Shown piece after piece: positions 16,784-63,091 of a stretch of DNA of 64,000 nt. Location: IMG/VR virus record IMGVR_UViG_3300042307_000844; one strand, given 5' to 3'. The notes under the pieces are model-generated. The model saw only the letters and a list, made by a program, of their open reading frames with translations. It ran no database searches and was not told the origin of the DNA. The stretch is from a virus (Duplodnaviria; Caudoviricetes). Numbering within the stretch: position 1 is the first letter of the stretch; each line of letters starts with the position of its first letter. The position numbers and the translations under genes are program-made.

Positions 16784-16784
16784 T

Positions 16785-27752: not shown

Positions 27753-27758
27753 AAAGCC

Positions 27759-28790: not shown

Positions 28791-29093
28791 CCCTAGAACA
28801 ACAAAGAATTGCCATCGCGGAAGAATCCGGCAGAGAATAACGAAATCACCATATTGCACGGAGGAGTTCCGGTAGATATCGGAAGTATTTGGGAAAATCG
28901 AGAAAAATATAATAAAAAAATTTTTTTCAATGGGGGGGAATTTCGATTTTTTATAGAAAAAAAATAAAAATTTATATGTCATATTTTTTCAAATGGTAAT
29001 TTTTATATTTTTTATAAAAATAATTTTAGCCATGGCACCCCACCCCATACCCCCCCATCCCTAGTTTTTAAAGCAAATCGAAGTAGCCCCCCC

Positions 29094-29156
29094 CTAACAG
29101 TTAGATATGGCATATCTAACAGAAAGCATTTATATATCATTTGCATATCTAACAGA
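29094..29156. repeat. Inverted and direct repeats in the non-coding boundary
   Basis: GTTAGATATG-G-CATATCTAAC palindrome at 29100-29120; GCATATCTAACAGA at 29110 and 29143. Confidence 0.85.
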
Positions 29157-29172
29157 TCATATATCATGACAC

Positions 29173-29216
29173 AAAAAAAGCCCCTTGGCATACCTTCAAG
29201 AGATATGCCAAGGGGC
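29173..29216 (-). terminator. Strong intrinsic terminator ending the early array
   Basis: 13-bp stem GCCCCTTGGCATA/TATGCCAAGGGGC plus T7 on the minus strand. Confidence 0.9.
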
Positions 29217-32200
29217 GAGGGGATCAGGCGAAGTCGGCAAGGAACTCTTTCAGGGTGCTGCCGTTGACCGTGACAGTCTCACCGTCATAACAATCAACTT
29301 GTGCGTAGAACGTGAAGGCTCCCCGCTTGCGGGACATGTAAACGGTTTCGGAATCTTGCGCGTTCCAACGAAACCCCTTCTTTTCAAGGACGGTGACAAC
29401 GGCAACGAATTGTGGTAATGTGGTGGTATTCATGGTAGTAGCATCTTACCCTAGTTTTTATAGGGTGATGATCTCCGCATCCTTCAGAGTGGCGGCGAAC
29501 GCTTGCGCTTCCTCCAAGGTAGCGTAGCGGGAGAAGCCGAAGGCATCGCAAACCTTGAACTTCTTTGCGTCCTCCTTGGCGCGATAGGCATCGAAGGCTG
29601 CGGCTTCTGCGCGTTGTGCTTCCTCCGATGGAGTGCAGCGTCCGGTGAAGTCATACTCAGGTGTCAGGTATCTCATGGTAGTAGCATCTTACCCTAGTTT
29701 TTATTCTCCACAGGCTTTCAGGAAAGTGTCAATCAGTCGCAACCATGCAACATCATCTCGTCCTCATTCATCACTTCATCCTCACTCTCAACATCACGAA
29801 CAGCGAGGGCAAACGCTTGTGCGTAATCCATTCCATCCCCTAGTCCACGGTGGATGAAGTTTTCGCCGGAGAAATTCCAATGCCCGATCTCAACTCGAAC
29901 CTTGGCGAACCTTGCACAAGCCCAATGAGGTTGGACATCCTTGGAGATGACAGTGAAGGTTTCTTTGTAGCGTGGGGAATAATAGGTGGTGGTCATGGTG
30001 GTGTTGATGGTGTTGGTCACAAGGGCATCTTACCCTAGTTTTTAAACGCTAGGACGTTGAGCGTGTCGGATGCGCTCCCCCCGTTTTGATCATGCTTCGT
30101 AAGCCATCCACGTTCCCGCGTCATATGGCTCCGCATACAGCCCCAAGGACTTCAGGGCTTTCTGGACTTCAGGATGCACCTGCTCGTCGTGGTAGCAGTC
30201 GAAGAAGGGCATTCCATCCGTGTGAAGATTCCCTTCTTGGCGAAACCAGATGCCGCCTTCCTCCCCATCCCATTCGGTGGTGGATACGGCTTTGATCTTG
30301 GGGAACAACTCATTCAGCTTGGCGATTTTGTTTTTCATGGTGAGGCTATCTTAGGCTAGTTTTTAAAAGGGGGATCGAACCCCTTTCGCTTATCAGATCA
30401 GGCTGAAGACCAGCAACCAGCTTGGACTACCGTCCGGGCCGTGACCGTCAGACTCCACACGCTTACCCGTAGGAGTCTTGCAAACTCCATCCATTCCCCA
30501 CCGTTCCAAGGAGGACATCGATGGGGCTTTGAATGCGCTTGTGATACGCACCTGAAGCGGTTCGGGATGCGCTGGCGAGTGAACAAGGCAACGGCTGTCC
30601 TTGCCCTCGATGAAGGAGACGGGCAAGCCCTTGGCAAGTGTGGAACCGTCTTTGAGTAGGATGTCTTTTTGTGTTTTCATGGTAGTAGGATTCTAGGCTA
30701 GTTTTTAACCCTCGTTGTTATAGGTGGTTGCGTGAGACTTCTTTGTAAAGGCGCGGTATCCGCCACCCACCCGCACAAGGTAACGGTAGTTTGGGTGAGG
30801 ATTGTCCTTGGCGTTATTGTCAAACGTGGTGATACCGTTCTCAATGGAAAGGTCAGCATCCATGTCAATCTCATAGGATTGAATGAACACGTTCGGGAAC
30901 TCTTCGGATTTGTATCGGGTGATCATGGTGAGGCTATTTTGTGCTAGTTTTTATTCGCGTTTTCCCAGAGGGTTTTGATTTCCCATTTGTCCCATATGAT
31001 TTGATCTTCATCGGTGACATCGTTCCCCACGTAGAGAACGGTTTTCCCAAGCTTTGCGGGACGGGTTCCGGTTCCGGGTCGTCCATACAAGCCAGAGGTT
31101 TCCCCACAGTAAAGCGTATGGGTTGCGCCTTGTGCCTTTGACCAGTCACAAGGTGCGCCCCCATAGACTTCATGGGTCTTGCCATAACTCTTTTCACGGA
31201 CTCCCGTGATGGAGGTTTTACGGGCGCGGAGGATGTCTTCCAATGGGTAGTTGCTCATGGTGCAATCAGTCTAGGCTAGTTTTTATCAGGCGTATTCTGC
31301 TCCGATCAATTCGTTACCCCAGCGAACGGGGCGACGAGCGAAATTTGAGATGGCAATTGCCTCATCCCTTGTGATGGCATAGGCAAGGACTTGTCCGCTG
31401 GCGGTGAATAACATATCGTTCATGGTGCAATCAGTCTAGGCTAGTTTTTAAAACCACAGATAAAGGAAAAACAGGAGAAGGGCGAAAGGCCACAAGCCAT
31501 AGGCAAGCAAGCCGACAATGGCGAGGATAAAAATGAGTTCTTTCATGTTAGTTTTTAAATGGTTTGCCCCTCCCCGGAACCACCCGGAGAGGGGACTTTT
31601 ACCATGTTACCCCACGAAAGAGAAACCCGCTTGGGCGATTGCGCCCCGAACCATGCCTTGTTGCTTTGAAGTTGTGACGCTGTAGCGGTCAGGATTGACC
31701 CAGAAACCGCCTTCCACACGCTTGGCAAGGGGGAAGTGGTAGCCATAGCTGTAAAGGGTGTCCCCTTCGATGAACATGCTCTTCAGGCTATTCTTGCCCT
31801 TGGTTGCGCCGGATACGAATGCTTTAACGATTTGTTTGTTGGTCATGGTGGTGTGTGTTGTTGGTGTTGGTTACGAGATCAGTCTAGGCTAGTTTTTATC
31901 CAACCGTTACCGTTGTCCCAAAGGGAAGGTGCGCGGTGAATGGAAAGACCTTGGCAATGTCCACCTTGCCATCGCTGGAAAGGGTGAACTTGGAATGGCG
32001 GGTGTTTCCGACAGTGATGGAGACGAGTATCAGTTTCATGGTGAGGCTATTTTGGTTTAGTTTTTATGCGATGGAGTCGATGAATGCCTTGGCTTCCGTG
32101 GTTGTCAAGGTGTGTCCGATCTTCCGCATGTCAGGGGAATAGATGTCAAATCCATCCCCGATCATGCCCGACTTAATGATTGTATGTGTTTTGTATTTCA

Positions 32201-34660
32201 TGGTGCAGCTATCTTACGCTAGTTTTTAAGGGGATTGAACCCTTAGGTTTGTTTGATTAACGGCCATTCAAAACCATCTTAATGGCTTTCACGGTGTCGG
32301 GCTTCCACCCGTAGCAACGGGCATCCGTCTCCAGATTCATGGCGACTCCGAAAGGCATCCCCTTTCCTTGTTGACCAAAGGTGAAGTTCTCCACCGCGAT
32401 ACGTTTGGCCTTTGGATACTTGGCCATTGCTTTCTCGACTGCTTGTGTGTGTTCGTTCATGGTAATGTGATGTTAGTCTAGTTTTTAAGCAAGGCGGGAC
32501 AACCAGACTTCGCTCGCCTTTGGCAATCCCCTCTCAGCAATCGCACCGTCCCGCATGACTTCCTTTGTCATGGCTTTTCTTGCGCTTTGAAGGGCTTTGA
32601 TTTGAGCCAAGGAAGGGGCGCGATAGCTTGGGAAAACCGCTTGAATCGCCTTCTCTTCCGCTTGCAAGTTGCGGTGATTCTCTTCCGCGCTCTTGAAGGA
32701 ATCAACATAGGGCTTAAATGTAAGTAAACGCTTACCTTTCACCTTTTCCCCGTCCTTAAAGAGATTGTAGCATCCTACGCCAAGGGGAACGATGTTCGCT
32801 TCACGGGCGGGGACGATCTTTTCGATTTCAGGTATTATATCAGATATATGTTTCATGGTAGTAGCAGTTTACGCTAGTTTTTAAAAGGGGGATTGAACCC
32901 CTTTCGGGGTTGGTTTAATATCCGGCAAACTTGAATTTCACCTCTCCGAACATATCGTCTTCGAAGTAAAACCAGCCACCCTTAAAGGTTATTTCCTGAT
33001 GCTCCCAAAGGATAGGGAAATCGGTGGATACCTCATCGAAAAGGATGAAATGGGGAGGAGTTCCAAACTCATCGGCGGGGTGATATTCAAATTGTCCCAG
33101 AACGATGTTGCCATCGACATAGGTTTCAACTGCGATGGGGGCGGTGCTTGTTAGTTGTATTTTCATAACGAGACGATCTTACTCTAGTTTTTATCCAATC
33201 AGGATGAACAGGATGATGGGGGTGAACGCGAACAGGAAGAACGCAGCGAGGGTGTCAAGGATGAGTTGTTTCATGGTGCAGCTATCTTAATCTAGTTTTT
33301 AAGAGAAGAGTCTGTCCACATGGCGAACAATCCAAGGCTGGTTTCTGTCCTTCTCGATGGCAGCAAAGATTTCCTTGCCCTTGTGCATCACCCGGACAGT
33401 CCCGGCTTGCCAGTCCTTTTCCACGGGCAGTCCCGCGCTTTCCAGAGCTTTTACCATTGCTTTAACGTGTTCTTTTGTAAGTAATTTGGTCATGGTTAAA
33501 TCTTAGTCTAGTTTTTATTCCTCTTCTTCCTCTTCTTCCTCGTCCTCTTCTTCTTCCTCGATGAATCCTTCGCGCTCGCAAAGGTCTTGAACATCGGCTT
33601 CCGACATGTAGGAGCAGAAGGCACTGATCACGGTATCCTTATCAAGAATACCCTCTTCGATCATTTCAAGCAGTTGGTTTGTGTATTGTCTGGTCATGGT
33701 GTTATCTTAATCTAGTTTTTAAACGATCACATATTCCCCGCGCTCCAATAGAACCCCCACAGGATCATCCTTTCGCTCATGGATAAAAATCAATCCTTTT
33801 TCCTTCCAATCGGGTTGATTGGTGGCATGGGAGAATCCATAGGTCTTGCGAACATCAAGAACAATATCAGTTCCCAACAGCTTGTAATTATGTAGTGGCT
33901 TTGCTTTCATGGTGAGGCTATCTTACGCTAGTTTTTATCGCTTCAAATTCATTTGAATATTTTCGCTCATCCGCATTCACCCTTGCCATTTCAGCAAGGA
34001 CAAAATCCTCGACAAGTTGCGTTTGCTCTCCCGTGATAATGCCTTGTTTGTAAAGGTTGTATGCAAGGAACTCAAAGGTCGTGGTGAGCTTTCCAACAAG
34101 ATATGGGTAACAGATAGGTGCTTCGTTCATAGTGACAATATCTTAGGCTAGTTTTTAAATGGTATCACAACCCGCCTTCGGTTATGTTCAGATGTTGAAT
34201 AGGTTGAGGATCTCAACTTTCATGTTTTCCAGATACGCATCCATGTGTTCCGCATCGTATTCCATGGAGACTTCCATCTCAAAGTAATTGGAGATTTCAT
34301 TTTGATATTGCAGAATGATATCTGCGATTTTTTCTTTCATGCTGTCAGTGTTTTGTGGCGTGTTCATGGTGACAATATCTTAGGCTAGTTTTTAAATGAA
34401 TTGGGCTACTACTGTGGAGCTTCCTACCAATTCTTCCTTGAAAAAGCAGTCATTTCTATCAGAATTCCATCCACTGAAAAGGAACTTTCGCCCCTCGTAG
34501 GTGAGAACTTTCTTACTAATTTTCTTTACATCATCCCATCCGTTAGGGACTTCGATATAAAGCCATCCACGCCCATCGGTGGAAACACGGTAATCTGCTT
34601 TGATTTCTTTCGGGTTAATGGTGATGTTGGACATGGCTAAATCTTAATCTAGTTTTTAAA

Positions 34661-34735
34661 TGGTGGAGCGTGTAGGAATCGAACCTACATTGGAGGTGTA
34701 GAAAACCTCAGTCCTATCCGTTGAACGAACGCTCC
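34661..34735 (-). tRNA. tRNA-Arg(TCT)
   Basis: GGAGCGT/ACGCTCC-A-CCA; GAGGT-TTTCTAC-ACCTC. Confidence 0.92.
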
Positions 34736-34758
34736 GATTTTGTGTTAGTTTTTAAGAG

Positions 34759-34834
34759 TGGTGCGCCCGAATGGATTTGAACCATTGACCCGCCGATTAT
34801 GAGTCGGATGCTCTAACCACTGAGCTACAAGCGC
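34759..34834 (-). tRNA. tRNA-Ile2(CAT), lysidine type (elongator Met not excluded)
   Basis: TAGCTCAGTGGTTAGAGCA...GA-CTCATAA-TCG resembles bacterial Ile2; CCA present. Confidence 0.85.
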
Positions 34835-34862
34835 ATTTTGTTCCACGTGGAACATTGAAAGG

Positions 34863-34945
34863 TGCTTCGGAAGGGACTTGAACCCTTACGCCATTACTGG
34901 CAACGGATTTTAAGTCCGTAGTGTCTGCCATTCCACCACCAAAGC
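34863..34945 (-). tRNA. tRNA-Leu(TAA), ends CCT
   Basis: ACGGA-CTTAAAA-TCCGT with long variable arm. Confidence 0.92.
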
Positions 34946-35544
34946 ATGAGACTTTATTTAACGATTCCGTTGTGATAGTCAATCATGTCTTGGATATCGG
35001 ATTCGGTCATTGTTTCGTTCATGGTGCTATTTTGGTTTAGTTTTTATCAGTGTCCCATAGCAACCTTGAATCCATATTGGTAATATCCACCAGTATCCAA
35101 TTCGGAAATAATTACGTCTTTCGTCCACACACCGTTCCATTCCATGTGATAGACTTGTCCTAACGTCATTATTCTAAATTTTGTCGTTATCATAGCTTTA
35201 TTCTGCGCTAGTTTTTATCGTGTTCCTTTTGCGATTTCAGCATGATGATCGGCTTGATACTTTCCGGCGCATATTGTGATTGTGCCTTGAAAAATCCCAC
35301 CCAATCCCCGAATTTGTCGATCAGCTTTTGCTTTTGCTCGTCGGTGATGAAGTCGCCTTTCATATACATTCCCGCTTTTGAATTGTCCTTGTTTCGCATG
35401 ATTCCGCTTTCATGATATCGAAATCCGATATTGCAAGCGAAGGAAATAAAGTCTTATTCCGTTGGTTTTCTTTTCATGTCAAAATCTTACGCTAGTTTTT
35501 AAAACCAATTGCCTCCATCCTTTCGTATTCCCCTATCCCAAAAT

Positions 35545-35654
35545 CTTAGCCAAGGCTAAGTTTCTTAGTCCTAACATACTTTCTTAGCAGGGACTTAGAT
35601 TGTTTTTCATGGCTAAGAAACTTAGCCTGTACTAAGTTTTTTAGTCTTGACTAA
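35545..35654. repeat. Cluster of CTAAG/CTTAG palindromes in a non-coding gap
   Basis: CTTAGCC-AA-GGCTAAG, GCTAAG-TTT-CTTAGT, GGCTAAG-AAA-CTTAGCC, ACTAAG-TTT-TTTAGT; eight CTNAG sites in about 100 bp. Confidence 0.85.
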
Positions 35655-35666
35655 TAACTATCCCTA

Positions 35667-36047
35667 TCAGTCTTTAATCCTTAATTGTTCTACCTTGATT
35701 CCCATCTTATCAGCAATTTCTTGCAATGTCATTTCAACCACTTTTGGGCGTTTGTCAAATAAAACTCCATAGGAGTTTTCCCGATAGATTTCATTGCCCC
35801 TTGAATCGTATTCACTTTTACTCCAATAACCAGTGGAGTCTTCCCGATAGATTTCATTGCCCCTTGAATCGTATTCACTTTTACCCCAATAACCAGTGGA
35901 GTCTTCCCAATAGATTGTATTGCCATTGGTATCCCGTTCTCTTTTGCTCCAAGAACCAGTGGAGGTTTCATAATAGATTGTATTGCCATTCTTATCTTTG
36001 ATGACGAATGGAAATGTTGTTACTTTTAATTGTTTGGCGATTGTCAT
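35667..36047 (-). CDS. Protein with 20-aa tandem beta repeats (GNEIYREDSTGYWSKSEYDS) and an HTH-like tail
   Basis: 60-nt tandem repeats at about 35778-35990; tail MTLQEIADKMGIKVEQLRIKD. Confidence 0.8.
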   Translation of the reverse strand: MTIAKQLKVTTFPFVIKDKNGNTIYYETSTGSWSKRERDTNGNTIYWEDSTGYWGKSEYDSRGNEIYREDSTGYWSKSEYDSRGNEIYRENSYGVLFDKRPKVVEMTLQEIADKMGIKVEQLRIKD

Positions 36048-37246
36048 AGTGCTATTCTGCTTTAGTTTTTAAGAGAGAAATCCGATCCCCATCAATCCAT
36101 ATAAACCCCAGCCTTGGAAAGTTAGTCTCCTCAAAGTTGCCACCATTCCACCAGTGTTTCCTCGGGAATTTCCATCCTTTTCGCAGCATTGGCCATGCGT
36201 TTGCATTCCCTGTATTGCTGGGGAGTCATCATGGAATCATCGAATTCCTCCCGCCCATTGCTTACATCGGATGCAAAGCAGAAAAGGATATCTTTCCCAT
36301 CGGGTTCCTTATTGTTTTGTGTATTGTAAATACTAGCGAAGTAATCGAAGGATACGCTGTTTCTTCCCTTGGAAACCCTCACCTTGTAATGGTTATGTAT
36401 TCCCATTGACCACGTTGGTTGCTTGGTATTGGAAAGGGTTGTCTTGATTGTGATTCCGTTGATTGTGTCTTGCATGTTCTTATTATCGTTTAGTTTTTAA
36501 ACCAATCCCACAAGTCCTTCGGATTCCTTAATATCCTTGAAGTCTTGAAGGTGTTTTTCTTTGAATTCATGAAATACTTGGAATGATTCTGCTTGTTCTT
36601 TTGAATACACTCCCCCTTTGGAAACACGCAAACCGCTTTCCTCATGGATGATGCTTGCGTGTCTTCCCCAAGATAGGGTTTCAGTTTTCAATTTGAATCC
36701 GATTTTCTTTAATTCTTTTCTTAATTGATTTAATGTCATGGTGCTATTCTGCTTTAGTTTTTAATACTTCCTCTCCACCTTGGGGCAAATCTTCCGCAGG
36801 GCGGTTTCAATATGGGAATCGTTCATATACTCATAAAGCTCATTGATAAAATTGTATTGCTTTGTGGAAAATAGGATATCCCACACGAATCTCTTTTGCA
36901 GGTCTTTCACCCTATCGGCACGGGGAAATTGTCCTTGTTCATAAAGGGATTTGATATGTTCTATTCCCCCGCATCTTTCCGCTTCCGTATTGATAATGGT
37001 TTCCAGCTTTTGGTAATCCTCCCGTTTGATCTTCATGGCTTTATTATCCTCTAGTTTTTAACCTTCGTAAAGTTCCTTGCCTTTTTCAATGATCGCTTTC
37101 ATTCCGCTTGGGGAAAGATTGTAATCCCCTGCCATCTTTTCAATTGTCAGATAATTATTAACCCAATCCAGATACGTTTTGATTGTCCATGCATCCAAAG
37201 CTTGTTTTGCTTGTGTTTCGGTCATGTCCAAATCTTAATCTAGTTT

Positions 37247-37810
37247 TTAAAGGAATGGATTGGGAATCATTTCCCGTATCATCTCACAGTGTTCTAACCT
37301 TGCTGCTGACGCTGCTGACCGTGCTGTTGACCATGCTGCTGACTCTGCTGACCATGCTGCTGACGCTGCTGCTGACGCTGCTGACTCTGCTGACCATGCT
37401 GCTGACCATGCTGCTGACGCTGCTGCTGACGCTGCTGACTCTGCTGACCATGCTGCTGACCATGCTGCTGACGCTGCTGCTGACGCTGCTGCTGACGCTG
37501 CTGCTGACGCTGCTGACCGTGTTTCTTCGCAAGGGTTTTCAATCCATGCCCTTGCAGCTTCAATTGCAAGTTTTGGGCGATTTTCCCCTTTAGGTATATT
37601 GACAAGACATTTTTCCGCAAATGCTATGGACAATCTCACTGATTGTTCCTTTTCAAGAGGTTTGCATTTTTCAAGCATCCAAAAAAGCCATTCTGGTTCC
37701 TCACAAGCATCCCAAACTTGGGACATGGTTTCGTGGCTTAGAGCAAATTCTCGCCCTTCCTCACACATCTCATTCGGGGAGTATTTGTTACAAAATTCAG
37801 TCGTGTTCAT
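37247..37810 (-). CDS. Imm5-like helical protein with Ala/Ser/Trp repeat expansion
   Basis: RPKLAIEAARAW followed by (AASA/AWSA/AESA)n encoded by the repeat at 37301-37520. Confidence 0.7.
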   Translation of the reverse strand: MNTTEFCNKYSPNEMCEEGREFALSHETMSQVWDACEEPEWLFWMLEKCKPLEKEQSVRLSIAFAEKCLVNIPKGENRPKLAIEAARAWIENPCEETRSAASAAASAAASAAASAAWSAAWSAESAASAAASAAWSAAWSAESAASAAASAAWSAESAAWSTARSAASAARLEHCEMIREMIPNPFL

Positions 37811-39335
37811 GGTGTTATTGTATTCTAGTTTTTATTGTTCAGTTTTTCCGCCATTGCTTGGGCTTCCTCCATCGTTTGGATGATCTTCCCATAGAAGTAA
37901 TTGGAATAGGTGATTCTTCCGCGATCATTGATTTCCATGGAAGGCTTGTGAATCACTTCATAAGCTTCCTTGGGGGAGGGCATTGCGCCATGAAAGGAAA
38001 CGTGTTTGGGTAATAGCAGATGGGCATATTCATCCTTGAGCTTCCATAAGGGATTTGATATCGCTTTGTAGGTCATGGCTAAATCTTAATCTAGTTTTTA
38101 ACCCGTGTGATTTGCACCAGTTCAATCCCATAGGTATCCCCTTGCCATGATATGATGCTATTCCAGAACCAATCTTGGATTTCAAAAACATCCCCCCCCT
38201 TGCGATATTCCGTGATGATTTCCCCACAATCCTTGTAAGTGATCCTGTATTTGTTCATGGGGTAATTGTGGTTTAGTTTTTAAGCTTTTCTTTTCTCCAG
38301 ATCAGATTCCCCGAATGTCGCCTGTCCCAGAAAGTCAAATTCCTCATCAGTGCATACGTTTTTAGCGGAGGCGCATTCGTTGAGCCTGTCAAACCCTGTC
38401 ACAATACAAGTTCCCCAGCGAGGGGCGTTGAATTTGTCGCCTTTGCGAACGGGCTTTTGATCGTGGTATCGGAGTGTCTTCATGGCTCTATATTACGCTA
38501 GTTTTTAAAGAGGGCATGGGCATTCCCCATTCACCCAATCGCAAATTTCCTCAGATAATTCGTTAATCGCACTTTGGAGCGTTTCAATGTTCCTCCCCTT
38601 CCAATGCTCTCCCATACCATCAGGAACAGCGAGGATTTTGCGCTTGCCTGTCACAACATGGATAGGATAAAAGAACCATCGGCTCCCCATGTCACTTGAG
38701 CGATCCCAAGCTGCATCAATGCTTTTGAAATTCCTTCCTTCCGTAACCATTTCACCATCGATGGCAATACATTTGAGTTGAATCATGTCGTTATTATGGT
38801 TTAGTTTTTAAAAGTCTGATTCAGGGCAACAATCGGGATTATAGAAACTTTCCACCTCCTCCCCAATAGTTACCAATTGCAGATATTCCACATTTTCATC
38901 ATGTTCATATGAGTCAAAAGCGTGTTTGGCATCTTTCAGAAATTGAAAAGATTGGTAAGTCTTATCACAATTTCCCCATTCAATCAGTAGTAAGTAAGGC
39001 ATGGCTTTATTATTGTTTAGTTTTTAAAGGCAGCTTTCGGCATCTGCCAGAATTTCCTTGGCAACCTCTCGACAATTGGAATTCCGAAAGAGATATCCCA
39101 CTCCCCACGTTGGATAAAGATAAGCTCCCCCCGTATAGCTATTATCCCCCGTTTGATATCCCCATTCCCCATTTTCCGTATTGATCCCAATTGTGATTTG
39201 CATGGATGGCGTATCCCCATCCTCAAATGCACGGGAATCCTCATCAATGTATTTCTTGCAATGTATGAGAAGCTTTGTAATTTCCTTGATCGTTGGTAGC
39301 TTGTGTTTCGTCATGTCCTTATTATGGTTTAGTTT

Positions 39336-39794
39336 TTAAGCTCTCACATAATAGTCATCCCCTTGATAGGAAACGATTGTGTAATCTTGTGCCAAGGCTT
39401 CCGCCGCAGCTTCCCAATCAATATGATTGTAAGGCCATGACGCATTTCTTTCAGTTACTCCCAAATCTTCCGCCAGTTCCCTTGCATAGTCCTCAAAATC
39501 ATCGACGGGAATCATCGTTTCCCCACGGCTAAAATCGGAAATTTCGCTTTCCAGTTCCTCCAATTCCTCCAGTTCCCCTTTCTCGTCATCGGAGAAATTA
39601 TCAATGGCATTTTGCAAGGTTTCCTCCAATTCATCCAATTCATCCTCCCATTCCCTGATTTCTTCCTCATCCTCTTCGGAGGGTTTCAAATCGCGGTGTT
39701 GATCCAATTCCGATTGGGCATCCGTAACGACATCCCGCAGGGCTTCCAGTTCTTCCTTGCGCTCTTTCAAGTCTCTTGTGTCAATTGTTTTCAT
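39336..39794 (-). CDS. Highly acidic ArdA-like putative DNA-mimic antirestriction protein
   Basis: FEDYARELAEDLG...IDWEAAAEALAQDY resembles the ArdA C-terminus; very Asp/Glu-rich. Confidence 0.6.
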   Translation of the reverse strand: MKTIDTRDLKERKEELEALRDVVTDAQSELDQHRDLKPSEEDEEEIREWEDELDELEETLQNAIDNFSDDEKGELEELEELESEISDFSRGETMIPVDDFEDYARELAEDLGVTERNASWPYNHIDWEAAAEALAQDYTIVSYQGDDYYVRA

Positions 39795-39825
39795 CGTGCT
39801 TTTATTTTATTCTAGTTTTTAAAAG

Positions 39826-39903
39826 TGGTAGTCCGGGCGGGTGTCGATCCCGCAACCTCTCACTTATAAGGCAAGCGCTCTCACCGCTTTGAGCTACCGG
39901 ACA
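39826..39903 (-). tRNA. tRNA-Ile(TAT)
   Basis: CTTGC-CTTATAA-GTGAG; T-arm GCGGG-ATCGACA-CCCGC; ACCA end. Confidence 0.85.
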
Positions 39904-42900
39904 ATTTTTATTTAATTTTATAGGACTTTTTCAAATCTCGCAAATGTTATAAATGTCTTCAATTTCAAAGTGTAGAAGAATCAATTGCCTACGCATCTCC
40001 CCAAGTTCCTTTTTCACTTTCTTCATATGAATCTTGGATTCAAGAGAGATATTTCCTTTTTCTTTATTGGCAATGTCCTGAATCATCGTTGCCAATTGCT
40101 GTTTAATGCTCTCGTATTGGTGCATGATCAAATCTTAATCTAGTTTTTAAGTAGTCGGGCGGTGTATTTGTCAATTGCGGGTTTCAAATCGTAAATCAAA
40201 TCTCTCAAATACAATGCAACTTCACTCTCCCCCGCTGAATGTCCCCTTTCATATGCCATATAGGACAAAACTGAAACAAATTCTTCGGGAATGCTTTTCA
40301 ATAGAAGCTCAGATTCCGTGGTTTCCTCAATCACCAGATCATCGCAAAAATCCATTTCATTTTCAACCTGCTCTTTGGTTGGATATTGGCAAGTGTATTT
40401 ATACTTTGCGCTTGTGCCGATATAAATTTTGTTCATGTTTGAAGTATCCTCTAGTTTTCACTCGCCCAAATATGTCCACCCCACAAATCCCAACCTTTGG
40501 AATAGCTCATCCTTGAAGATTGTTCGTGCTTCCTTTTCCGTCAAACGGATTTCCAGAGTATCCCCTTGGCATCCCTTGATTGCAGCGAACAAATCCGCGC
40601 TTCTCTCAAACCGATACAGACCTGCTTTGTGTTTCATGTTTGAAGTATCCTCTAGTTTTTAATAAGACATGATTCGGTAGAAATCATCATTCTTGTCCAC
40701 CCCAGCACCCGTTTCAGCAAAAGCAATCGACAATCCTTTTATGAACCAATCGGCTTGCTCTTTCGTCAGACCATAGGCGGAATCCCTACCGTTCATTCTC
40801 ACAGTGAAATACCCATTTTTGTCCTCTTTGAGTTCAATGCGGTGTGTCATGGGCTGATTATGGTTTAGTTTTTAAATTCTGATACTCCCGCCCATTCCAG
40901 AAGTTGGACATCCCCTGAATTGATATGCTCTTTCAGGGATTCCAGTTCCGCGATTTCCTCATAACTGATACGTTCCGCTTCAATCTCCCCGCGAAGGTAT
41001 TCCAATCGTTTTTGAATTTCGTTCATGGCTTAATTATCGTTTAGTTTTTAAGAGATTTTGGCAACCATCTCCACCCCATTCAAAGGGCGAGCGAAGAAAG
41101 CTTCGTTCCTATCGCTATTCCATCCCGTGTAAGCGAATTTCCTCCCCTCAAACGTGAGAACCTTTTTCACAAGCTTCTTCACATCATCCCATCCTTCGGG
41201 ACAATCCACTGTCAGGAATTCCCTCCCCACATCTTCCCGGATGCTATGTCTCACTGTCACTTCCTTGGGATCAATTGTTGCTTTCATGTCCGTATTGTGG
41301 TCTAGTTTTTAACCTCTTGATTTTCCTCATTATCCCAAACCATGAAATCAATCCGGTTCAAATCTTTCCTTGGCTTGCGATTCGTGAAACGTTCATTAGA
41401 ATCAGACAAACGAACAATCGTGAATTTGTAAAGATTTGAAAGAGGATTTTTCATACCTTTTGCGGGCGGGGCTTGCCAATGGATATAATACATGTTCATG
41501 TGCTGATTATGGTCTAGTTTTTAAAAGTCGTCCCCTTCCCTTGCAAACCCTACTCACCAGCGGGAGGAAGGGGACTATCCGACGAGAATTTATAGGGCGA
41601 TCTTGGCTTGGAATGCGCCATTGACTCGCGGTTGGATATACGATCCACTCTTGGAATGCCTCACCTTTGCGTCAGGATGCTCCTGTAGGGCGTTTGTCGC
41701 GGCAAAGAACCTTTCCCGCTTGGCTTTCTCTTCCGCCGCCTTGTTGCGCTCCTGAAAGAGCAATTCAACCCGTTCCGCCTTGCGATGGGCGCGATCCTTT
41801 TCCGCGAAGATCATTTTCAGCTTCTCCGAACGTGTGAACACGTTGCCCCTTGATGCTGCTCGGAAGATCGTTGGTGCTGAGTTCTTGCTTCCCATCCAGT
41901 TGCTTTTAAGTGTCGTTGTCATTGTGGTATCAGTGTAGGCTAGTTTTTATGCTTCCAGATTCAGGAGAGTCATACGGATTTCAATGGATACCCGCAAATC
42001 CCTGTCAATCTCGGAGAATTTCTTAGTGTAGAAAAACAAATCTTCCATGAAAATCTTGCGATTGTCAGAGGTTGTTTCGTGAAGATTTGCCTGAAGCTTG
42101 TCGCGCTCTTCGTAGAGACGGTTGATCTTATCTTCGTGGTATGCGATGTGTTCTTGCTTGGTCATGGTGTTATTGTGTTCTAGTTTTTATGCGTCTTGAA
42201 AGTTCTCCAATGCTCGGCAAAGTTTCCGCTTGTCGGCATGATCCATTTGCATTTCACTGGCAATGAACATAATATCACCATCCTTTAGGTTTTGGATGAA
42301 ATCCAGCAGGGCATCCCGCTCATCTTCCGTTAGCTTGTTGAGTTTGTCTTAGTAGTAGGACATGGCTTTATTATCGTTTAGTTTTTATTTTTTCCAAAGA
42401 ATTTAGAAAATCTTCCGCCGCCCATTTGAAATCGAGTGCGAGTGTATTATTTAAAATCGCTTCTCGTAGCCAGAAGGCTAATTTTTCAGCATTGTTCAAA
42501 AATTCATCGTCCATGGGTTCAGTATCGTTTAGTTTTTAATATCCGTTCTCCAATGCCCAATCCTCAATCTGAGAAAGAACCTTATTGGAAATCTTCTCTT
42601 CCCCCCCATTATCTTTCTCAAGGAATCCCATGTCCAGAGCAAGACCAAGGGAAGATGCTCCCCCCGTATTGCTCTCAATGTCACAATATGATCGTTGATC
42701 CCCTCCCTCCTCAAAGAGTTCCAAGGTGACGGTATATTTTCCAAATGTCTTGGTAATGGTTTCGTTTCTCATGGCTTTATTATCGTTTAGTTTTTAAGCG
42801 AAGTTGGTTTCGTATTCCGAATGGATTTCCCCGTTTTTGAAAATATAAATATATTTCACTTCCTTGTGGAAACCTTTCTTTTCCGCGAAGCTGTCCCAAT

Positions 42901-44816: not shown

Positions 44817-45038
44817 TCATGGCTTGTTAGCGATAAGAGATTCGAGAGCTACCACCTGCTCGTGGACTTCGCATGTTGCCAAATTGTAGTCTGGTTTTGT
44901 GCCGTGCTCGTATCCGCCGTTATAGAGGCAGACGAGCGACATACACTCTCCATTCGCGTGTCGGTTGCAGCGAGATTTCAAATCGCTAACAAGGCGGTGG
45001 AGGACAACAGCCTCCCGTTGAGTCTCAGGTGTATTCAT
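44817..45038 (-). CDS. Captured integron-type cassette gene (Cys-rich, 73 aa)
   Basis: Bounded on the minus strand by GTTAGCGAT (44990-44982) and its exact reverse complement ATCGCTAAC (44834-44826). Confidence 0.75.
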   Translation of the reverse strand: MNTPETQREAVVLHRLVSDLKSRCNRHANGECMSLVCLYNGGYEHGTKPDYNLATCEVHEQVVALESLIANKP

Positions 45039-45080
45039 AGATTTTCGGCGGGAGGCTGTGCCTCACCTTGGTCGATATTG
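44984..45080 (-). mobile_element. Degenerate attC-like site
   Basis: AACAAGGCGGTGGAGGACAACAGCCTCCCG...CGGGAGGCTGTGCCTCACCTTGGTCG(AT); one core is replaced by the phage promoter's -10. Confidence 0.7.
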
Positions 45081-49528: not shown

Positions 49529-49583
49529 TGGTCGGGCGTAATGCTATTCCCGTTCCTTCCGTCTCAGCATTTTTCCCGTCCGA
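49529..49583 (-). ncRNA. Possible tRNA remnant / CCA-ending hairpin
   Basis: CGGACG...AATGCT-loop-AGCATT-ACGCCCG-A-CCA, in the same context as true tRNAs (ACCA-CTTTTAAAAACTA). Confidence 0.35.
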
Positions 49584-49973
49584 GCGGGATTAATCGGAAG
49601 CTGTTTTTGACACTCAAGCCTCTACCAGAGCATGGGAAAATTCTTTCTCCGTGATATCAGCATCCCCATACTTTTCCATCCATTCCATGGCTTCTGATTC
49701 GCTTAGGGCGATGATATCAGAAGAACCTCCCCGCCCGTTGTTTCCAACTGGACATGAATATTTGCTCATGGCATTACCAGAACCATATAGAAAGTAATTC
49801 CCCTTCTTGGTTTTGTAAAGCGATTCAGTGTAATGATTGAAATCCGTTGAATAATAATTATTGGAATAATAATCAATTTCAGTTGCGGTTTCCGTGTTAT
49901 AGACTTTTCCTTCGATTACTTTTTTCATATGTTTCTTTCTCGTTACGACCAAATCTTAATCTAGTTTTTAAAA

Positions 49974-50079
49974 GGTTGGGGCGGGAGGACTTGAACCTCC
50001 ATCGCTGACTCGTCTGGCAGACAGTGGATATCATGTCTGTTGCGACCACATGCCGACATACCATTAGTCGCACACCCCA
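49974..50079 (-). ncRNA. tRNA-like RNA with 11-nt anticodon loop and 31-nt insert
   Basis: TGGGGTG/CGCCCCA-A-CC; D-arm CGAC-TAATGGTAT-GTCG; T-arm GGAGG-TTCAAGT-CCTCC; CATGT-GGTCGCAACAG-ACATG. Confidence 0.75.
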
Positions 50080-50432
50080 AATCTATCATCCAGCAGTAAG
50101 AACCAGATCACCCCGCTTGATAAGCTTCTCACGCTCCACGGGATTGACAAGAGCAGATACAAAGCTTCTCTTGTTCTCCATACCCAAGCCGAATTCAGCG
50201 GAGTATGCCTTACGTCCAAGGTCTTTGTTCGATCCACCAGTGCCATTGCCCCTAGTCCAGAATTCCGTCGCACCTTGGGCAAGGTAGAACATGTTCCCGC
50301 CGCGATTACCTGCACCATTCCATGCCAGAGAGACGATTTCCGTCATCTGATTCAGAGAACGGGTGGAAAGCTTCTCATCGCTCTTGGTCTTGTCTTCATG
50401 TTGTCAGTGTAGTCTAGTTTTTAAAGAGCATG

Positions 50433-53373: not shown

Positions 53374-54447
53374 CTAGTTTTTATGGAACTTGTAGTAGAG
53401 TCCTGCTTGGGTTGCGATCATCAGGAGAAATGCCGTGACGATCATCCAAGTCTCTACCACAAATTCATCGTCCTGATATTGCTCCCAATTATGAGGCTTG
53501 TAATTTTTCAGAATTTCCGATTTTATCAAAGGTATGATATTAATATCAATTGGATTATCCAACAAGATCGTCTGAAGATTCATCTTAACCAGTTCCTTAT
53601 CAGTCCATCCAAACACATAAGACCAACCATCACCATAGCATAGAACCAGATCATTCTTCCTACCGTTCTTCCAATGTTGTTGGAATTTCTTGGCAGTATC
53701 AATGCTACCCAATTTGACCATGAGAACATTCACCCCCCTTTGATCATATAGATAGGTATTCATCTTATCCCAATCCCAATGGCTTAGGGGAACACCCCCC
53801 AACAATCGGGATGACTTGAATTTATCATGGTTCGGATAATCAAATAGTCCGTATTGTTGGATTTCATTGTCTGATAGCTTTTCATATCCACGCAATCCCT
53901 TTTGGGTTAGGATTGGATTTAACCACATGGCAGTTCCATTGACCGGATAATCACAAAATTCGGGATCATCAGATACCGTGGAATGATAATCATATCTATC
54001 TCCTGAATCATAATCGGGACGATACCCCAACTCTTTACGAATTCCATGTTGTCTCCCAATGTAATTAAAATATCCTTCCGTGATTTGCATACTACCGATT
54101 GTCGTATCTGCAACCCATGTGGGGGAATGTGTTTTTCTTCTTGTAACCAGTCTTGTATGTGTATGGGATTTACCCTTGGAATCGGTTGTGGTGTATGTCT
54201 CCGTCTCCGTCCATTCAGCCTTCCATTTAGGAGTGTGGACAACCGACATAATCCTACCGGATTCGGTATAAGTATCATGACTCAGGCTACATTGTGATAT
54301 GCCAAAAACAGAGATGATCACAACCAGTGCCGCTCCCACGCTTGTTGCCGATTCCCACAATTCAATTGTGTGGAACTTTTGCCATGAGACAACCCCCGCG
54401 ATCACGGGGATTATCATCAACAGGAATATCCAGTATCCGCTCATCAC
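53374..54447 (-). CDS. Multi-pass membrane protein with extracytoplasmic (TPM-like) domain
   Basis: Two N-terminal TM segments and a C-terminal TM; coupled to the LemA-like gene. Confidence 0.65.
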   Translation of the reverse strand: MMSGYWIFLLMIIPVIAGVVSWQKFHTIELWESATSVGAALVVIISVFGISQCSLSHDTYTESGRIMSVVHTPKWKAEWTETETYTTTDSKGKSHTHTRLVTRRKTHSPTWVADTTIGSMQITEGYFNYIGRQHGIRKELGYRPDYDSGDRYDYHSTVSDDPEFCDYPVNGTAMWLNPILTQKGLRGYEKLSDNEIQQYGLFDYPNHDKFKSSRLLGGVPLSHWDWDKMNTYLYDQRGVNVLMVKLGSIDTAKKFQQHWKNGRKNDLVLCYGDGWSYVFGWTDKELVKMNLQTILLDNPIDINIIPLIKSEILKNYKPHNWEQYQDDEFVVETWMIVTAFLLMIATQAGLYYKFHKN

Positions 54448-55004
54448 TCAACCCAATTGGAATTATCCTCACCAGTGGCAAAATTACCTTCGGTTTCCTT
54501 GGAAGTTACGATGATAATTTCAATTTCCTTTTTACCAAACCATTTCAGAATGGTTCCAGATGGTACGGTTCCAATCATATTATCCGCTTGTCGTTTGATA
54601 TCAACCAATCGTGTTTGTGCCATTTGCCAATCCTTTCGTCCTGCAACCACGATGTTCTGGAGATTCTTCAGCGTTTCAATACCTTGGATACTTGGGACTG
54701 CTTCCGTCACCATACCTACAGTGACAAGTTGACCATCCCCGGCAGTATTACCCCCTCTTGCATCGGCATAACCCGTGATGATATTGGTAAGGGCTTCCAC
54801 TTCCTTGTCCGATACGTTGGCAGCTTCCCGAATGGATTTTCGAGTGTTATCAAGGATATTCTTATTATCCGTTTGTGCTGCTTTTGCAAGATTCTCAAAT
54901 CTTGTGTAAGAGTTGAAGCTTCCCAGAACGGAAACCAAAAGGATTACTCCAAGGAGGATGACACCTCCAAGAACCGACAGTGTTGTAATTAGCGTTTTGC
55001 TCAT
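54444..55004 (-). CDS. LemA-like membrane-anchored protein
   Basis: N-terminal TM, helical body, C-terminal NMIGTVPSGTILKWFG. Confidence 0.6.
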   Translation of the reverse strand: MSKTLITTLSVLGGVILLGVILLVSVLGSFNSYTRFENLAKAAQTDNKNILDNTRKSIREAANVSDKEVEALTNIITGYADARGGNTAGDGQLVTVGMVTEAVPSIQGIETLKNLQNIVVAGRKDWQMAQTRLVDIKRQADNMIGTVPSGTILKWFGKKEIEIIIVTSKETEGNFATGEDNSNWVE

Positions 55005-55386
55005 TGTGTTATTGTGTTCTAGTTTTTAAGAATGTAGTAAGGAAAGCGCATAATTGATTCCGGCATGGTTATGGACACTTATTGGGGGTCATAAGTTACT
55101 GTTCTCCGGAAATGATTCCCCACGTCAGGGACTTTTCAGCTTCGACCATGATCGGGCCGATCCACGTCCGGCGCGTCCGAGTCCATCCGTGATGGTAGTA
55201 GCTAACATCCGTGTGGTAGAAGTCCCGCCCGCTGGATGAGAAGCCGCAGCGTCCCCACCATTTGCCCAGCCACCATATTTTCAGGCACCAGCGGTGTTTC
55301 TTTTCCGCCGTGAGGCAGAGTCCGTTCCATTTTGTGATTCGTATCGTCATATCGTGATTTGTAGGTTGGTTGGTAATTCGGAAGAG

Positions 55387-55481
55387 CGAGAACAAGCCAC
55401 GGCACACGACCGAGACTAGCTCTCCAGTTTCATTTCAAAGGCTTCTCATTGGCTCCCGGCGCGTGCGTTGTGACGTTAGCG
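55387..55481 (-). mobile_element. attC-like site (95 bp)
   Basis: Minus: CGCTAAC-GTCACAACGCACGCGCCG...CGGTCGTGTGCCGTGGCTT-GTTCTCG. Confidence 0.8.
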
Positions 55482-55701
55482 AAGAAATACTCAGCGTCCT
55501 TGCCCAGCTGCTCGATGGCGTCCTCGGCGTTGTCGTCGCAGTGTCCCATGTCCTCCTCTTTTTCGTTTCCAGACGGATCGAGCGGGTAGGTGCTGAACAC
55601 CCATTTTCCGGGCATTCCGTCAGTCCACCCTCCTCGAACGTATTTCCCGCCGGGGCGGATTCCAAGACCTAGACGTTTGGCTTCTTTCTGTATTCGAGCA
55701 T

Positions 55702-55735
55702 TCATGGTCGGCGTGCCTCCACTTGATCGTTCGCC
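55702..55735 (-). mobile_element. Truncated attC (left arm only)
   Basis: GGCGAAC-GATCAAGTGGAGGCACGCCGACC runs straight into the next ATG. Confidence 0.65.
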
Positions 55736-55958
55736 GTATGCTTCGTGTGAGCCGAGTAGATCAGCAGCGCCACGGGAGCGATGCCGAAATGCCACTCGCT
55801 GACATTCCCGCAGAGTCGGCACTTGTAGGTTCCAAGTCCGTCGCCATTGCTCGCCAGCCAGTAGGCTTGATCGTTGAGCATGTCGTGGCACTTCGGGCAG
55901 TAGGTCACGCATCCACAGTTCTGGATGATGTCGCGCTCTCTGCGTGTCCACCGCCAAC

Positions 55959-56087
55959 GGCGAACCAGACGCTGGACCCAACTGCATGGGCCTTCCTGTT
56001 CTTCTCTGAGTTTTCTGTGATTCGGCATATTATTTCTCCGGTTGAGTCTTCCCCCGCCCATGCAGCGGGTCAGCTTGGTCGTTCGTC
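55959..56087 (-). mobile_element. attC-like site (129 bp)
   Basis: Minus: GACGAAC-GACCAAGCTGACCCGCTGCATGGGC...GCCCATGCAGTTGGGTCCAGCGTCTG-GTTCGCC. Confidence 0.85.
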
Positions 56088-56315
56088 GGAAGAAAGGTCA
56101 TCAGCCGCTTGCAGTTTTCGGCGTCCCGGAATCGGTCGTAGATCGCCCACCATTCGGGGTCGGTTTTACCCACGATCAGTGAGAGTTCGTTGCGGCGGTC
56201 GAGTAGTTCGTGATGCCAGATATCGCTTGGATCGTAGCCGAGATTCCACGCGACGTTTTTCTCTATCTGGATTTCCATGCGTTTGAGTTGCATCCGACGT
56301 TTCAAAATCAAAGAC

Positions 56316-56439
56316 GACGAACAAGGCGTGAGAGAGCAACGGGCGGGGTGTTTTGATTTCGTAGTTTTCATGTAGTTATTGAGTCGGGGGCTTCGGCGGT
56401 GCGGCGTTGTCCGCCCGTGCCTCCACATTGGCGTTATGC
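56316..56439 (-). mobile_element. attC-like site (124 bp)
   Basis: Minus: GCATAAC-GCCAATGTGGAGGCACGGGCGG...CCGCCCGTTGCTCTCTCACGCCTT-GTTCGTC. Confidence 0.85.
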
Positions 56440-56525
56440 AGAATGCCAGTCCCCCACTTGGTAGAGCTTCCATTTGCCGTCAGGTCACGCATTTTCGCGG
56501 TGGTTAGTGTTTTATTTATTAAAAA

Positions 56526-56726: not shown

Positions 56727-56738
56727 ATTGGAAAATTG

Positions 56739-60375: not shown

Positions 60376-60598
60376 TTTATTATTTTTTATTTTCAAATTC
60401 CCACAAATAACCACCACAATGACGGGTTTTGCCACTTAGATGATTTGACATACTAGAACTATTTAAATTCAGATCGACGCAAGCATCCTTGGTAGATTCC
60501 CATCTTCTAATAAAAGAATGTTCAATATCATACTGAATGATGGGTTTTTTATTTTTTTAGTCACCTGAACTCTGTAATAATCGTGTTCTTCCATAATA

Positions 60599-61558: not shown

Positions 61559-61579
61559 GGGGGTATTGTGTTCTAGTTT

Positions 61580-62014
61580 TTAAGAATCGGCAAGCAGCTT
61601 TTCAATTATCGGATGAAGTGCCTCTGCTCCCTCGTAAACAATGGTCGTTTTAAATACTCCCCTGAATGTTTCAAATATTCCATGACGCATTGCAGGTTCT
61701 TTCACTCTGGTATGTTCAAAAGTGTTGTTCAAATCAGCAATTGTTTTGGTTGCTAAAATCCAACAAACCATATCTAAGGGATGGAGAGGGATAAAATTCA
61801 CTTTATATTCTCCAAATTGTGTTATAAAACCCTCAAAGTATTCACTTTCCTTGATATTATCACATTTGTCTTTAATATCCGCTATTAAATGGTTGGGAAT
61901 ACAAACATCCCAATCACTCCCTTCTCTTGGGAATCCCATGGCTCTACTTCCAGATAAAAATGCCGTATTTGGTAAATTGAATCTGTTTATAATTTCTTCA
62001 GGTATCTTGATCAT
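61580..62014 (-). CDS. Pol-beta-family minimal nucleotidyltransferase-like protein
   Basis: FLSGSRAMG...SDWDVC (GS...DxD). Confidence 0.7.
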   Translation of the reverse strand: MIKIPEEIINRFNLPNTAFLSGSRAMGFPREGSDWDVCIPNHLIADIKDKCDNIKESEYFEGFITQFGEYKVNFIPLHPLDMVCWILATKTIADLNNTFEHTRVKEPAMRHGIFETFRGVFKTTIVYEGAEALHPIIEKLLADS

Positions 62015-62920
62015 AATTTCGTGAATGATTCCAATAATTCATTCCATTCAAAATCCTCCAGATCACCCTTAACAGACTTCATCAGGATTTTGATCAATTC
62101 CAACGTGAAACCCACATCCTTGTATGCAGCATCAATTTCCGTGATGAATTCCAGACACTCACCTCTGGTCAATTCTCTCTTGATTGTTATAGGCTCAATA
62201 TTAACGTATGCTTGAATATTCATTTTTCTTGATATTCTGAGATAATCCCGACATTGATAATGTCGTTGATAACACTTTCCGCAAGCCTAATTGCCGAATC
62301 TTTTGTGAAACATTGGACACGATGCGTCATGCGCGATTTGTTATTGAAGATAATTACAGGGTAAAATCCAGTCTTTGTTTTGCGATAACTTGCTTTCATG
62401 GTATCGGTGTAGTCTAGTTTTTAAGAGAAATCATTCCGATTGTAGATCAATAAAGTCTTTTAATATTGCCGTCACTTCTTCAAGATTTGTAGCTTGATCG
62501 GCTCTTGTTTTAAGAGCTTCAATCTTGTTTGTTTTAATCCTAGCCTCAGTTCCATGAACTGGACAATTCGGGTCTTCTGCAATCCAAGGTCCACCAATTT
62601 TATAACAATCACACATAATTCAAAATATTGTGTCCCGATTTTCTATTCTCCAAATTGGTAATTTCGGCTTTCAATTTTTTGATCTCTACATCTTTATGAT
62701 ATTGGTTTCCGCTGGTATTCCCCTTGCCAAGATCAACCACTTTGATCAGTCCCTTATAACTCTTTGACATCAACAGTGGCCATTCGTCCACCCCCTCATC
62801 GTTTTTACATTTACATGCTTCACACATCAAATCCATTAGATTATCCCAAAGTTCTTTGGATGTGTTACCATCAAGTTCGATATAAAGTTCTTGCTTCATG
62901 TCCTGAGTGTGATCTAGTTT

Positions 62921-63091
62921 TTAATAAAGGTTCTCACTGTAGAGCGTTCCATCAGAAGATACTTTTCGTCTGATCTGACCTTCTTTTTCAGCTATTTTCC
63001 AAGCATCCTCACGATGGCGTATCGTCATTGCTTTGTCCTTGTAGTAATGCTTGTCGCCATATTTGCCGATGTTAATGTATACTGGAGTCAT
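62921..63091 (-). pseudogene. Truncated third paralog of the HREDGPA-repeat gene with an unrelated tail
   Basis: MTPVYINIGKYGDKHYYKDKAMTIRHRED then AWKIAEKEG...; not in the ORF track. Confidence 0.7.

Follow-up and report, generated by a model that had tools for sequence, protein, structure and literature searches.

A repeated box at the gene junctions of a lake T4-like phage: a candidate class of leaderless promoter and a probable crossover point for gene cassettes

What is the short element that stands before almost every gene along some 34 kb of a lake-water phage genome, and what would it do there? The window, a 64,000-nt stretch from IMG/VR virus record IMGVR_UViG_3300042307_000844, comes from an uncultured phage of the T4 superfamily, and an earlier reading of its letters (the original prediction) had described about 80 one-gene modules joined by an element combining a stop codon with a promoter. 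The analysis presented here favours as the probable answer that this element is a clade-specific class of prereplicative promoter, in which an invariant box replaces the -35 element and yields leaderless mRNAs, and that it serves besides as a crossover point for the shuffling of gene cassettes. The temporal class, the transcription start and the recombination mechanism are those parts of this answer that we infer from sequence.

IMG/VR contains many relatives of the phage, two of them complete with terminal repeats (G001, 207,489 bp, and G002, 197,682 bp). The whole of G001 was taken as a stand-in for the full genome of the window, and protein searches were made in three relatives, namely these two and one 89%-complete genome (G001-G003).

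The junction element and its hexamer

The exact pattern AAAAACTA-N3-TA-NN-AT was matched 35 times in the window against an expectation of 0.03. An iterated weight matrix applied to both strands returned 87 minus-strand sites (24360-62922) and a single plus-strand site (18363), the scores being sharply bimodal and the count of 87 unchanged at cut-offs from 8 to 14 bits, whilst mononucleotide shuffles gave approximately 3 sites at 8 bits and 1 at 10 bits. The recurring junction element is therefore real, with the correction to the original prediction that all elements of the array lie on the minus strand. Eighty-five of the 87 sites fall inside 29061-62922, the other two being at 24360 and 26773, and these 85 junctions form an array (29061-62938, minus strand) of TTAAAAACTAR-NN-nAnnAT, 6 or 9 nt and ATG, co-oriented with the small open reading frames (ORFs) downstream. 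The consensus T-T-A-A-A-A-A-C-T-A-R-(A/C)-N is followed by a hexamer nAnnAT to make a block of 19 bp, the commonest hexamers being TAAGAT, CACAAT, CATAAT, TACAAT and GATAAT. From hexamer to start codon the gap is 6 nt at 62 sites, 9 nt at 19 and 7 or 8 nt at 2, and a start codon is absent nearby at 4. At a typical junction (33695-33722, minus strand) the TAA stop of a 63-aa ORF (33719-33721) forms the first triplet of the box and is followed by TAAGAT, 6 nt and the ATG (33697) of a 60-aa ORF. Identical versions of 26-31 bp recur at 29459/29702, 31284/31449, 40459/40660 and 42386/42795/45270, much as had been described.

Boxes are separated by a median of 275 nt, with 58 of the 86 intervals no longer than 350 nt. 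Single-ORF modules number roughly 60-65 of the 86 intervals rather than some 80, and the remainder hold several ORFs, tRNAs or short ORFs. Similarly, the statement that genes and several tRNAs are preceded by the element applies to nearly all genes of the array but to one tRNA only, tRNA-Arg (34661-34735), which lies directly behind a box.

Across the 87 sites the hexamer has A at position 2 in 96% and T at position 6 in 95%, with A or C at position 5 and the other positions free. When 53 orthologous junction pairs from the window and four relatives were aligned, no changes were seen at A-11, T-7 or box positions -1 to 7, save 3 at box position 5, whereas the remaining junction positions differ in 15-53% of the pairs. 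Judged by this comparison, conservation of the hexamer is indicative of purifying selection and not of shared ancestry alone, and the hexamer behaves as a sigma-70-type -10 element would; the earlier assignment of TANNAT as the -10 hexamer thus has both sequence and comparative evidence behind it. At 26757-26784 (minus strand) the box occupies the spacer of a TTGACA-N16-TACAAT promoter situated 9 nt before the ATG at 26747, as originally noted, and this arrangement ties the hexamer to the -10 position. This is the sole box site scoring 6/6 in the -35 check. Over the box sites as a whole, matches to TTGACA in the -35 region are distributed as at random positions, in agreement with the prediction that the box lies directly against the -10 with no -35 element, and since this region matches no better than random the box would stand in for the -35 itself.

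Two other assignments were considered and ruled out. The invariant core AAAACT cannot be the -10 element, as the canonical -35 at 26773 is 16 bp from the downstream hexamer and not from the core, and the start signature and ATG are phased to that hexamer. An extended -10 (TGn) does not apply either, the G being at -15 rather than -14 and replaced by A or C in many copies.

Downstream of the hexamer a second regularity is found. In the 6-nt class a pyrimidine occupies hexamer+6 in 61 of 62 sites and A or G occupies hexamer+7 in all 62; in the 9-nt class both hold at 19 of 19. Among 74 boxes of G002 there is a pyrimidine at hexamer+6 in 72 (C in 70) and A or G at hexamer+7 in every one, and 13 of these boxes have no ATG in the 12 nt past the hexamer, yet keep C-1/A+1. 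Because it is kept in both spacer classes and in the ATG-less boxes of G002, the start-site signature is phased to the hexamer and not to the start codon. C-1/purine+1 at hexamer+6/+7 is where transcription would be expected to start, and transcripts from the 13 ATG-less boxes would accordingly carry leaders. The putative promoter would then consist of the box TTAAAAACTA(R) at about -25 to -15, a sigma-70-type hexamer nAnnAT at -12 to -7 and a C(-1)/purine(+1) start, the +1 purine being the A of ATG in most copies (6-nt spacer) and the A of ACC-ATG in the rest (9-nt spacer). Each small gene would in this way be expressed from a leaderless mRNA, or one with a 3-nt leader, translated without a Shine-Dalgarno sequence, so that the near-leaderless mRNAs of the original prediction are also what sequence and comparison lead us to predict.

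The same junctions close the genes upstream. At 32 of 86 junctions the upstream ORF stops on the TAA of the box itself, bearing out the remark that the leading TAA is frequently the stop of the previous gene, and at 14 it stops on the CTAR triplet 7 nt further, giving 46 of 86 inside the box; the upstream ORF reaches or enters the box at 50 of 82 junctions. At practically every junction the box closes two reading frames, and at 47 of 83 it closes the third as well; the ATG is in frame with the box TAA at 81 of 83 sites. The T at box position -1, which makes the TAA, is retained whether or not the stop is used, and use of the stop therefore looks opportunistic.

These stops suggest a reading at the RNA level, in which a long polycistronic RNA is made and the box directs an endoribonuclease cut before the AUG, or translation stops at TAA/TAG and reinitiates at the AUG 24 or 27 nt downstream. 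Such a signal would be strand-specific and always co-oriented with the genes, as the element is; the in-box stops, the frame shared by TAA and ATG and an A-rich, unstructured box are all compatible with it, and stop-start coupling is clearly used elsewhere in these genomes. Read-through RNA is also likely, as the only convincing minus-strand terminator in the scanned stretch 29000-48900 is a strong one with a 16-bp stem and a T run at 29180-29216, just past the last module at the end of the array. However, the hexamer pattern (A at 2, T at 6) is of the -10 type and holds in orthologous pairs, canonical -35 elements at 16-17 bp serve the same hexamer position in other genes, and C-1/R+1 keeps its fixed distance from the hexamer even where there is no ATG. 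Moreover, the second in-box stop is lost in G002, where 46 of 74 boxes read CTAC, and T(-1) persists regardless of any role as a stop. An RNA-level signal is consequently regarded as improbable.

Predicted leaderless geometry and putative promoter classes

The promoter interpretation of the box gains context from two further classes of putative promoter in these genomes that abut their start codons. Canonical TTGACA-N16/17-TAnnnT promoters lie 5-7 nt before ATG in the window and in G001, where the genes concerned include thymidylate synthase, glycosyltransferases and others; an example in the window is found at 27725-27761 (plus strand; TTGACA, 16 nt, TAAGAT, 6 nt, ATG). A T4-type late motif, TAARTA-N5-ATG, was counted 58 times in G001 and 13 times in the window, where the reversed sequences used as controls gave 7 and 1 respectively; an example lies at 5499-5512 (plus strand; TAAATA, 5 nt, ATG), and G001 encodes a gp55-like late sigma (phrog_234, E 2e-23). 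As the T4 late box spans -13 to -6 (PMC2988020), the N5 spacer would place +1 on the A of the ATG. A Shine-Dalgarno signal is missing genome-wide: of 357 G001 genes, 31 have a Shine-Dalgarno-like word at -18 to -5 where chance would give 36, and upstream of starts the stretch from -12 to -7 is poor in G. Where a G001 gene lacks a promoter motif, its start is in most cases coupled to the stop of the preceding gene (92 of 357). From these sequence patterns, expression throughout the phage family appears to depend on leaderless mRNAs made from all three promoter classes. Late-type and canonical promoters of leaderless geometry were observed throughout positions 1-29000 of the window, on both strands, and over the whole of G001.

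Late motifs occur on both strands, whereas boxes are nearly all on one; in G001 there are 123 boxes on one strand and 7 on the other. Prereplicative and late transcripts of T4 follow the same polarity rule, one strand as against both (PMC2988020), and on the strength of this match the box class is read as prereplicative. The complete relative also suggests that the array continues past the right end of the window.

In the mechanism proposed, the box would be read by the host holoenzyme alone, by an injected factor or by an early phage factor, and translation would start at the 5'-terminal AUG or through termination-reinitiation. Since leaderless translation needs a 5'-terminal AUG, each gene would need its own promoter or tight stop-start coupling, which would account for there being one box per gene.

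Boxes belong to a clade of phages. The motif was found in more than 45 IMG/VR contigs, with 79-123 boxes per genome in three near-complete relatives and 25-64 co-oriented boxes in the homologous 14-21 kb of five relatives that share 78-88% protein identity with the window over a 255-aa marker ORF. In a more remote relative (L055, IMGVR_UViG_3300006867_000048; 50% protein identity to the 255-aa ORF) the box is absent and a different 20-bp palindromic repeat is present, indicating that the box is clade-limited. That repeat, CTGT-N8-ACAG, is present in about 20 mostly apparently intergenic copies at approximately 3400-18800 of the contig and resembles the proteobacterial LexA box. The exact 19-mer box gave 7 single matches in 185,579 species genomes (596 Gb), about the number estimated for chance, and the box is not an element of bacterial genomes.

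Proposed recombination at the boxes and the question of a reader

Nucleotide homology between the window and its relatives comes in gene-sized blocks; a typical block opens at position -1 or 0 of one box and extends 8-32 nt into the following one. The original prediction had proposed the box as a homology hub, and 126 of 202 block ends do fall in junction windows making up 10% of the sequence (21 expected), a comparison confounded by the box being nearly the only non-coding DNA. A module map of five relatives is a mosaic of presence and absence with few changes of order. Junctions next to each other resemble one another more closely, with 6.9 differences on average compared with 8.5 for pairs drawn at random (0 of 2000 permutations), and box position 8 in G002 is C in 46, G in 21 and A in 7 boxes, the window having no C; both observations fit homogenisation among boxes. 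In G002 (L168-L170), over 120-180 kb, AAAAACTAC is seen in 46 of 74 boxes and removes the second in-box stop.

At 34737-34755 (minus strand) a box lies between tRNA-Met and tRNA-Arg, its hexamer ending 1 nt before the mature 5' end of tRNA-Arg, and the box-tRNA-Arg-box unit recurs as a module in relatives L053 and L054. Because this unit travels although the start would fall inside the tRNA, the box appears to matter as a joint as well. No tyrosine or serine recombinase was found in the three relatives, in searches whose controls gave matches, and general or microhomology recombination is therefore likely, as has been proposed for the promoter-early stem-loop (PeSL) cassettes of T4-type phages (PMC2839356, PMC4122927). 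The box would be the only sequence common to neighbouring cassettes, and recombination inside it would move whole [box + gene] units with expression unbroken, which would explain the gene-by-gene mosaic among relatives.

The box could instead be mainly a recombinational or selfish junction repeat spread and homogenised by gene conversion, with promoter activity in the hexamer alone and a core that has no role in transcription. The core is indeed more invariant than typical promoter elements, the likeness of adjacent junctions and the genome-wide shift at position 8 (C in G002; G or A in the window and G001) are as in concerted evolution, non-core junction positions differ by up to 53% between orthologues compared with about 30% at third-codon-like positions, and the box before tRNA-Arg cannot be the promoter of that tRNA. 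Yet in most bacteria a bare nAnnAT that has neither a -35 nor an extended -10 drives transcription very weakly, so that compensation from elsewhere is needed; box and hexamer are separated by a constant number of bases, a precision that recombination by itself does not call for; and the relatives encode no recombinase. The probability left to a junction repeat with a transcriptionally idle core is small.

The position of the box at about -25 to -15 is neither that of the MotA box (-30), nor that of an extended -10, nor that of a class II activator. Reading by the host holoenzyme alone is possible. We also consider, tentatively and as a possibility of rather low probability, that an unrecognised phage protein, injected or made early, reads the invariant box and replaces -35 recognition from a position that no known activator uses, in what would be a new form of sigma appropriation. 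For the proposal that the element belongs to a dedicated activator or sigma class no supporting protein was detected, the complete relatives encoding only the gp55-like late sigma. In each of the three relatives there was one weak match to sigma region 2 (the gp55 homologue) and no credible match to sigma region 4. Likewise, Pfam MotA_activ and AsiA had no match in these genomes, although the controls gave none, control genomes cannot match these families and distant homologues could escape; nor was there a match to AP2 (control also without a match) or to the DnaA C-terminal domain. Eight small proteins encoded behind canonical G001 promoters contained no Pfam DNA-binding domain, one of them being a glycosyltransferase.

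A long unbroken block, which keeps a constant distance to the start and is repeated almost unchanged many times in each genome, also recalls the promoters of a phage-encoded or virion-borne non-canonical RNA polymerase in the style of T7 or N4. This is very unlikely here, as the 3' half of the block varies exactly like a sigma-70 -10, one site pairs the box with a canonical -35 at 16 bp, and these are T4-like phages with a gp55-type late system dependent on host core polymerase. Single-subunit RNA polymerase (PF00940) had no match in the three relatives, a weak argument given that the control gave no match and that multisubunit phage polymerases were not searched. Least credible of all is an integron-like cassette store with the boxes as sites of a site-specific recombinase, for although single-gene, cassette-like units do vary in presence and absence, the box is not palindromic and has neither dyad symmetry nor inverted-repeat arms, the recombinase searches above were negative whilst their controls gave matches, and the cassettes are all co-oriented and each supplied with a promoter-like element, whereas integron cassettes are promoterless.

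Several points nevertheless weigh against a promoter class built on the box. The near-perfect invariance of the 10-bp core exceeds that of most promoter elements read by proteins and could reflect homogenisation by recombination. Conservation of the C before the ATG extends to the 9-nt class, and part of the apparent start-site signal could be translation context. A promoter requires neither the strict spacing of 6 or 9 nt nor the conserved frame between TAA and ATG; these could stem from the inheritance of junctions as complete units or from a constraint on translation that has gone unrecognised. The box at 34753 would start transcription 7 nt downstream, inside tRNA-Arg, and is probably a junction scar or non-productive for that tRNA. 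Boxes being nearly the only intergenic DNA, where surviving gene-sized indels must end, part of the excess of breakpoints at them is inevitable. Finally, searches of G001-G003 found no protein that could read the box, and we know of no characterised activator site matched by a box centred near -20.

Related systems and remaining features of the window

The textbook example of timed transcription in phages is that of the T4-like group, in which early and middle promoters retain both a leader and a ribosome-binding site. The middle promoters of T4, which depend on sigma appropriation by MotA and AsiA, resemble the box class in that a phage-specific box replaces the -35 element whilst a sigma-70-type -10 is kept, and in being on one strand and, as the boxes are read here, prereplicative. 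The MotA box, (a/t)(a/t)(a/t)TGCTT(t/c)A, is centred at -30, 11-13 bp from the -10, whereas TTAAAAACTAR is another sequence with its centre near -20 and its 3' end 2-3 bp from the hexamer, and is not a MotA box. Leaderless middle and late transcripts are reportedly made by the Thermus phage phiYS40. Placement of a -10 adjacent to the ORF and leaderless expression are common in Deinococcus-Thermus (PMC12340547), and the likeness to phiYS40 and these bacteria lies in a -10 directly before the start codon, an mRNA that begins at the AUG and independence from Shine-Dalgarno sequences. The lake clade differs in belonging to another phage lineage, in that all three of its promoter classes are predicted to be leaderless and in the invariant box added to its putative prereplicative class. 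In literature searches no description of leaderless promoters of this kind in T4-like phages was found.

The closest known system is that of the PeSL cassettes, described in the T4-type phages RB49/phi1, T4/PST and KVP40/nt-1 (PMC2839356, PMC4122927). Like the boxes, they are short regulatory cassettes that recur between small, non-essential genes where T4-like genomes are hyperplastic, and in both systems the insertions, deletions and replacements between related phages end at the cassettes, which act as crossover points for modular shuffling. PeSLs combine a strong sigma-70-like promoter with a terminator stem-loop and keep their leaders, whereas the box junctions have no -35 and, as had been predicted, no stem-loop: the 40 nt upstream of boxes fold with a mean energy of -5.7 kcal/mol, near the -5.1 kcal/mol of controls, and hairpins occur at a few junctions only. 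The box junctions are further set apart by an unrelated invariant box against the -10, by abutting the start codon with predicted absence of a leader and ribosome-binding site, and by their density of one per gene, about 85 in 34 kb. T-arm-like hairpins, GGGG-TTCRAT-CCCC, adjoin three boxes in the GC-richer part of the array (30366-30390, 32884-32908 and 32229-32250, minus strand); these may be remnants of tRNA genes or small stem-loops, and exceptions to the rule of no stem-loop.

T4 late promoters (TATAAATA; gp55/gp33/gp45; PMC2988020) share with the box class the lack of a -35 and a short element at the -10 position, and the clade has its own late class, TAARTA-N5-ATG, with a gp55 homologue. 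From this class, present in the same genome, the boxes are separate, having a sigma-70-like hexamer not of the TATAAATA type, an extra upstream box and single-strand polarity. In the halovirus HF2, intergenic repeats of 29 and 58 bp carrying promoters have been described (PMC8707807), and as far as that description goes HF2 is likewise a tailed virus with repeated intergenic promoters, set apart by its archaeal host domain, different transcription machinery and longer repeats.

In the lake clade an invariant box appears to mark approximately 85-120 prereplicative genes in each genome. This bears on annotation: starts in these genomes will be misplaced by gene callers that look for a ribosome-binding site, whereas the box fixes them to the base. 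If the promoter interpretation is true, the junction is a compact natural unit of 27 bp, holding a promoter, a start and the previous stop, that would be useful for synthetic cassettes; it would also be a new promoter architecture in which to seek a polymerase-redirecting factor, and a clear system for measuring the way in which genes of environmental phages are gained and lost through repeated regulatory elements. Were a phage protein to read the box and leaderless starts to be used genome-wide, each gene would be an autonomous plug-and-play cassette, driving very fast gene turnover in an abundant lake clade.

The window encodes a gp20-type portal (Pfam E 9e-88), which is about 29% identical to the portals of the nearest listed phages, including KVP40 and a Synechococcus phage, together with a gp15-like protein, a class I ribonucleotide reductase, a prohead protease and 12 tRNAs. 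Megablast against GenBank gave no near-identical phage record, and with regard to the host a look-up of the CCA-adding enzyme returned mixed phyla. No RNA run was listed for positions 33000-42900 of the window, and the 20 runs listed for 36480-38300 were all DNA metagenomes of lakes.

Outside the array, the minus-strand box at 24344-24362 precedes a 139-aa ORF (23918-24337) that is upstream of the first tRNA cluster. The sole plus-strand box (18361-18379) lies 19 nt upstream of the late-type TAAATA-N5-ATG start of ORF 18399-19163, a gene which, by its motifs, may carry both prereplicative and late promoters. Within the array, nearly all junctions at 29443-34409 (minus strand) have the 9-nt spacer ending C-A-C-C-ATG and form a closely similar local family in a GC-richer part. 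Immediately before the box at 49969, positions 49972-50088 (minus strand) could be folded as a tRNA-like RNA of about 117 nt with a 7-bp acceptor stem, a D-arm-like stem, a canonical T-arm (GGAGG-TTCAAGT-CCTCC), an ACC end and a long interior, for which neither ARAGORN nor Rfam made a call; similar acceptor-like 3' ends also precede the boxes at 49523 and 40148. At 42351-42386, 35456-35500, 50354-50422 and 34956-35045 (minus strand) boxes are followed by very short ORFs (4, 7, 15 and 22 codons) and then by a non-coding gap or tRNAs, and these box-led ORFs may be decayed cassettes or regulatory mini-ORFs. Positions 54000-56500 form a GC-richer island (about 0.50) with few boxes, at intervals of 1.6-1.9 kb.

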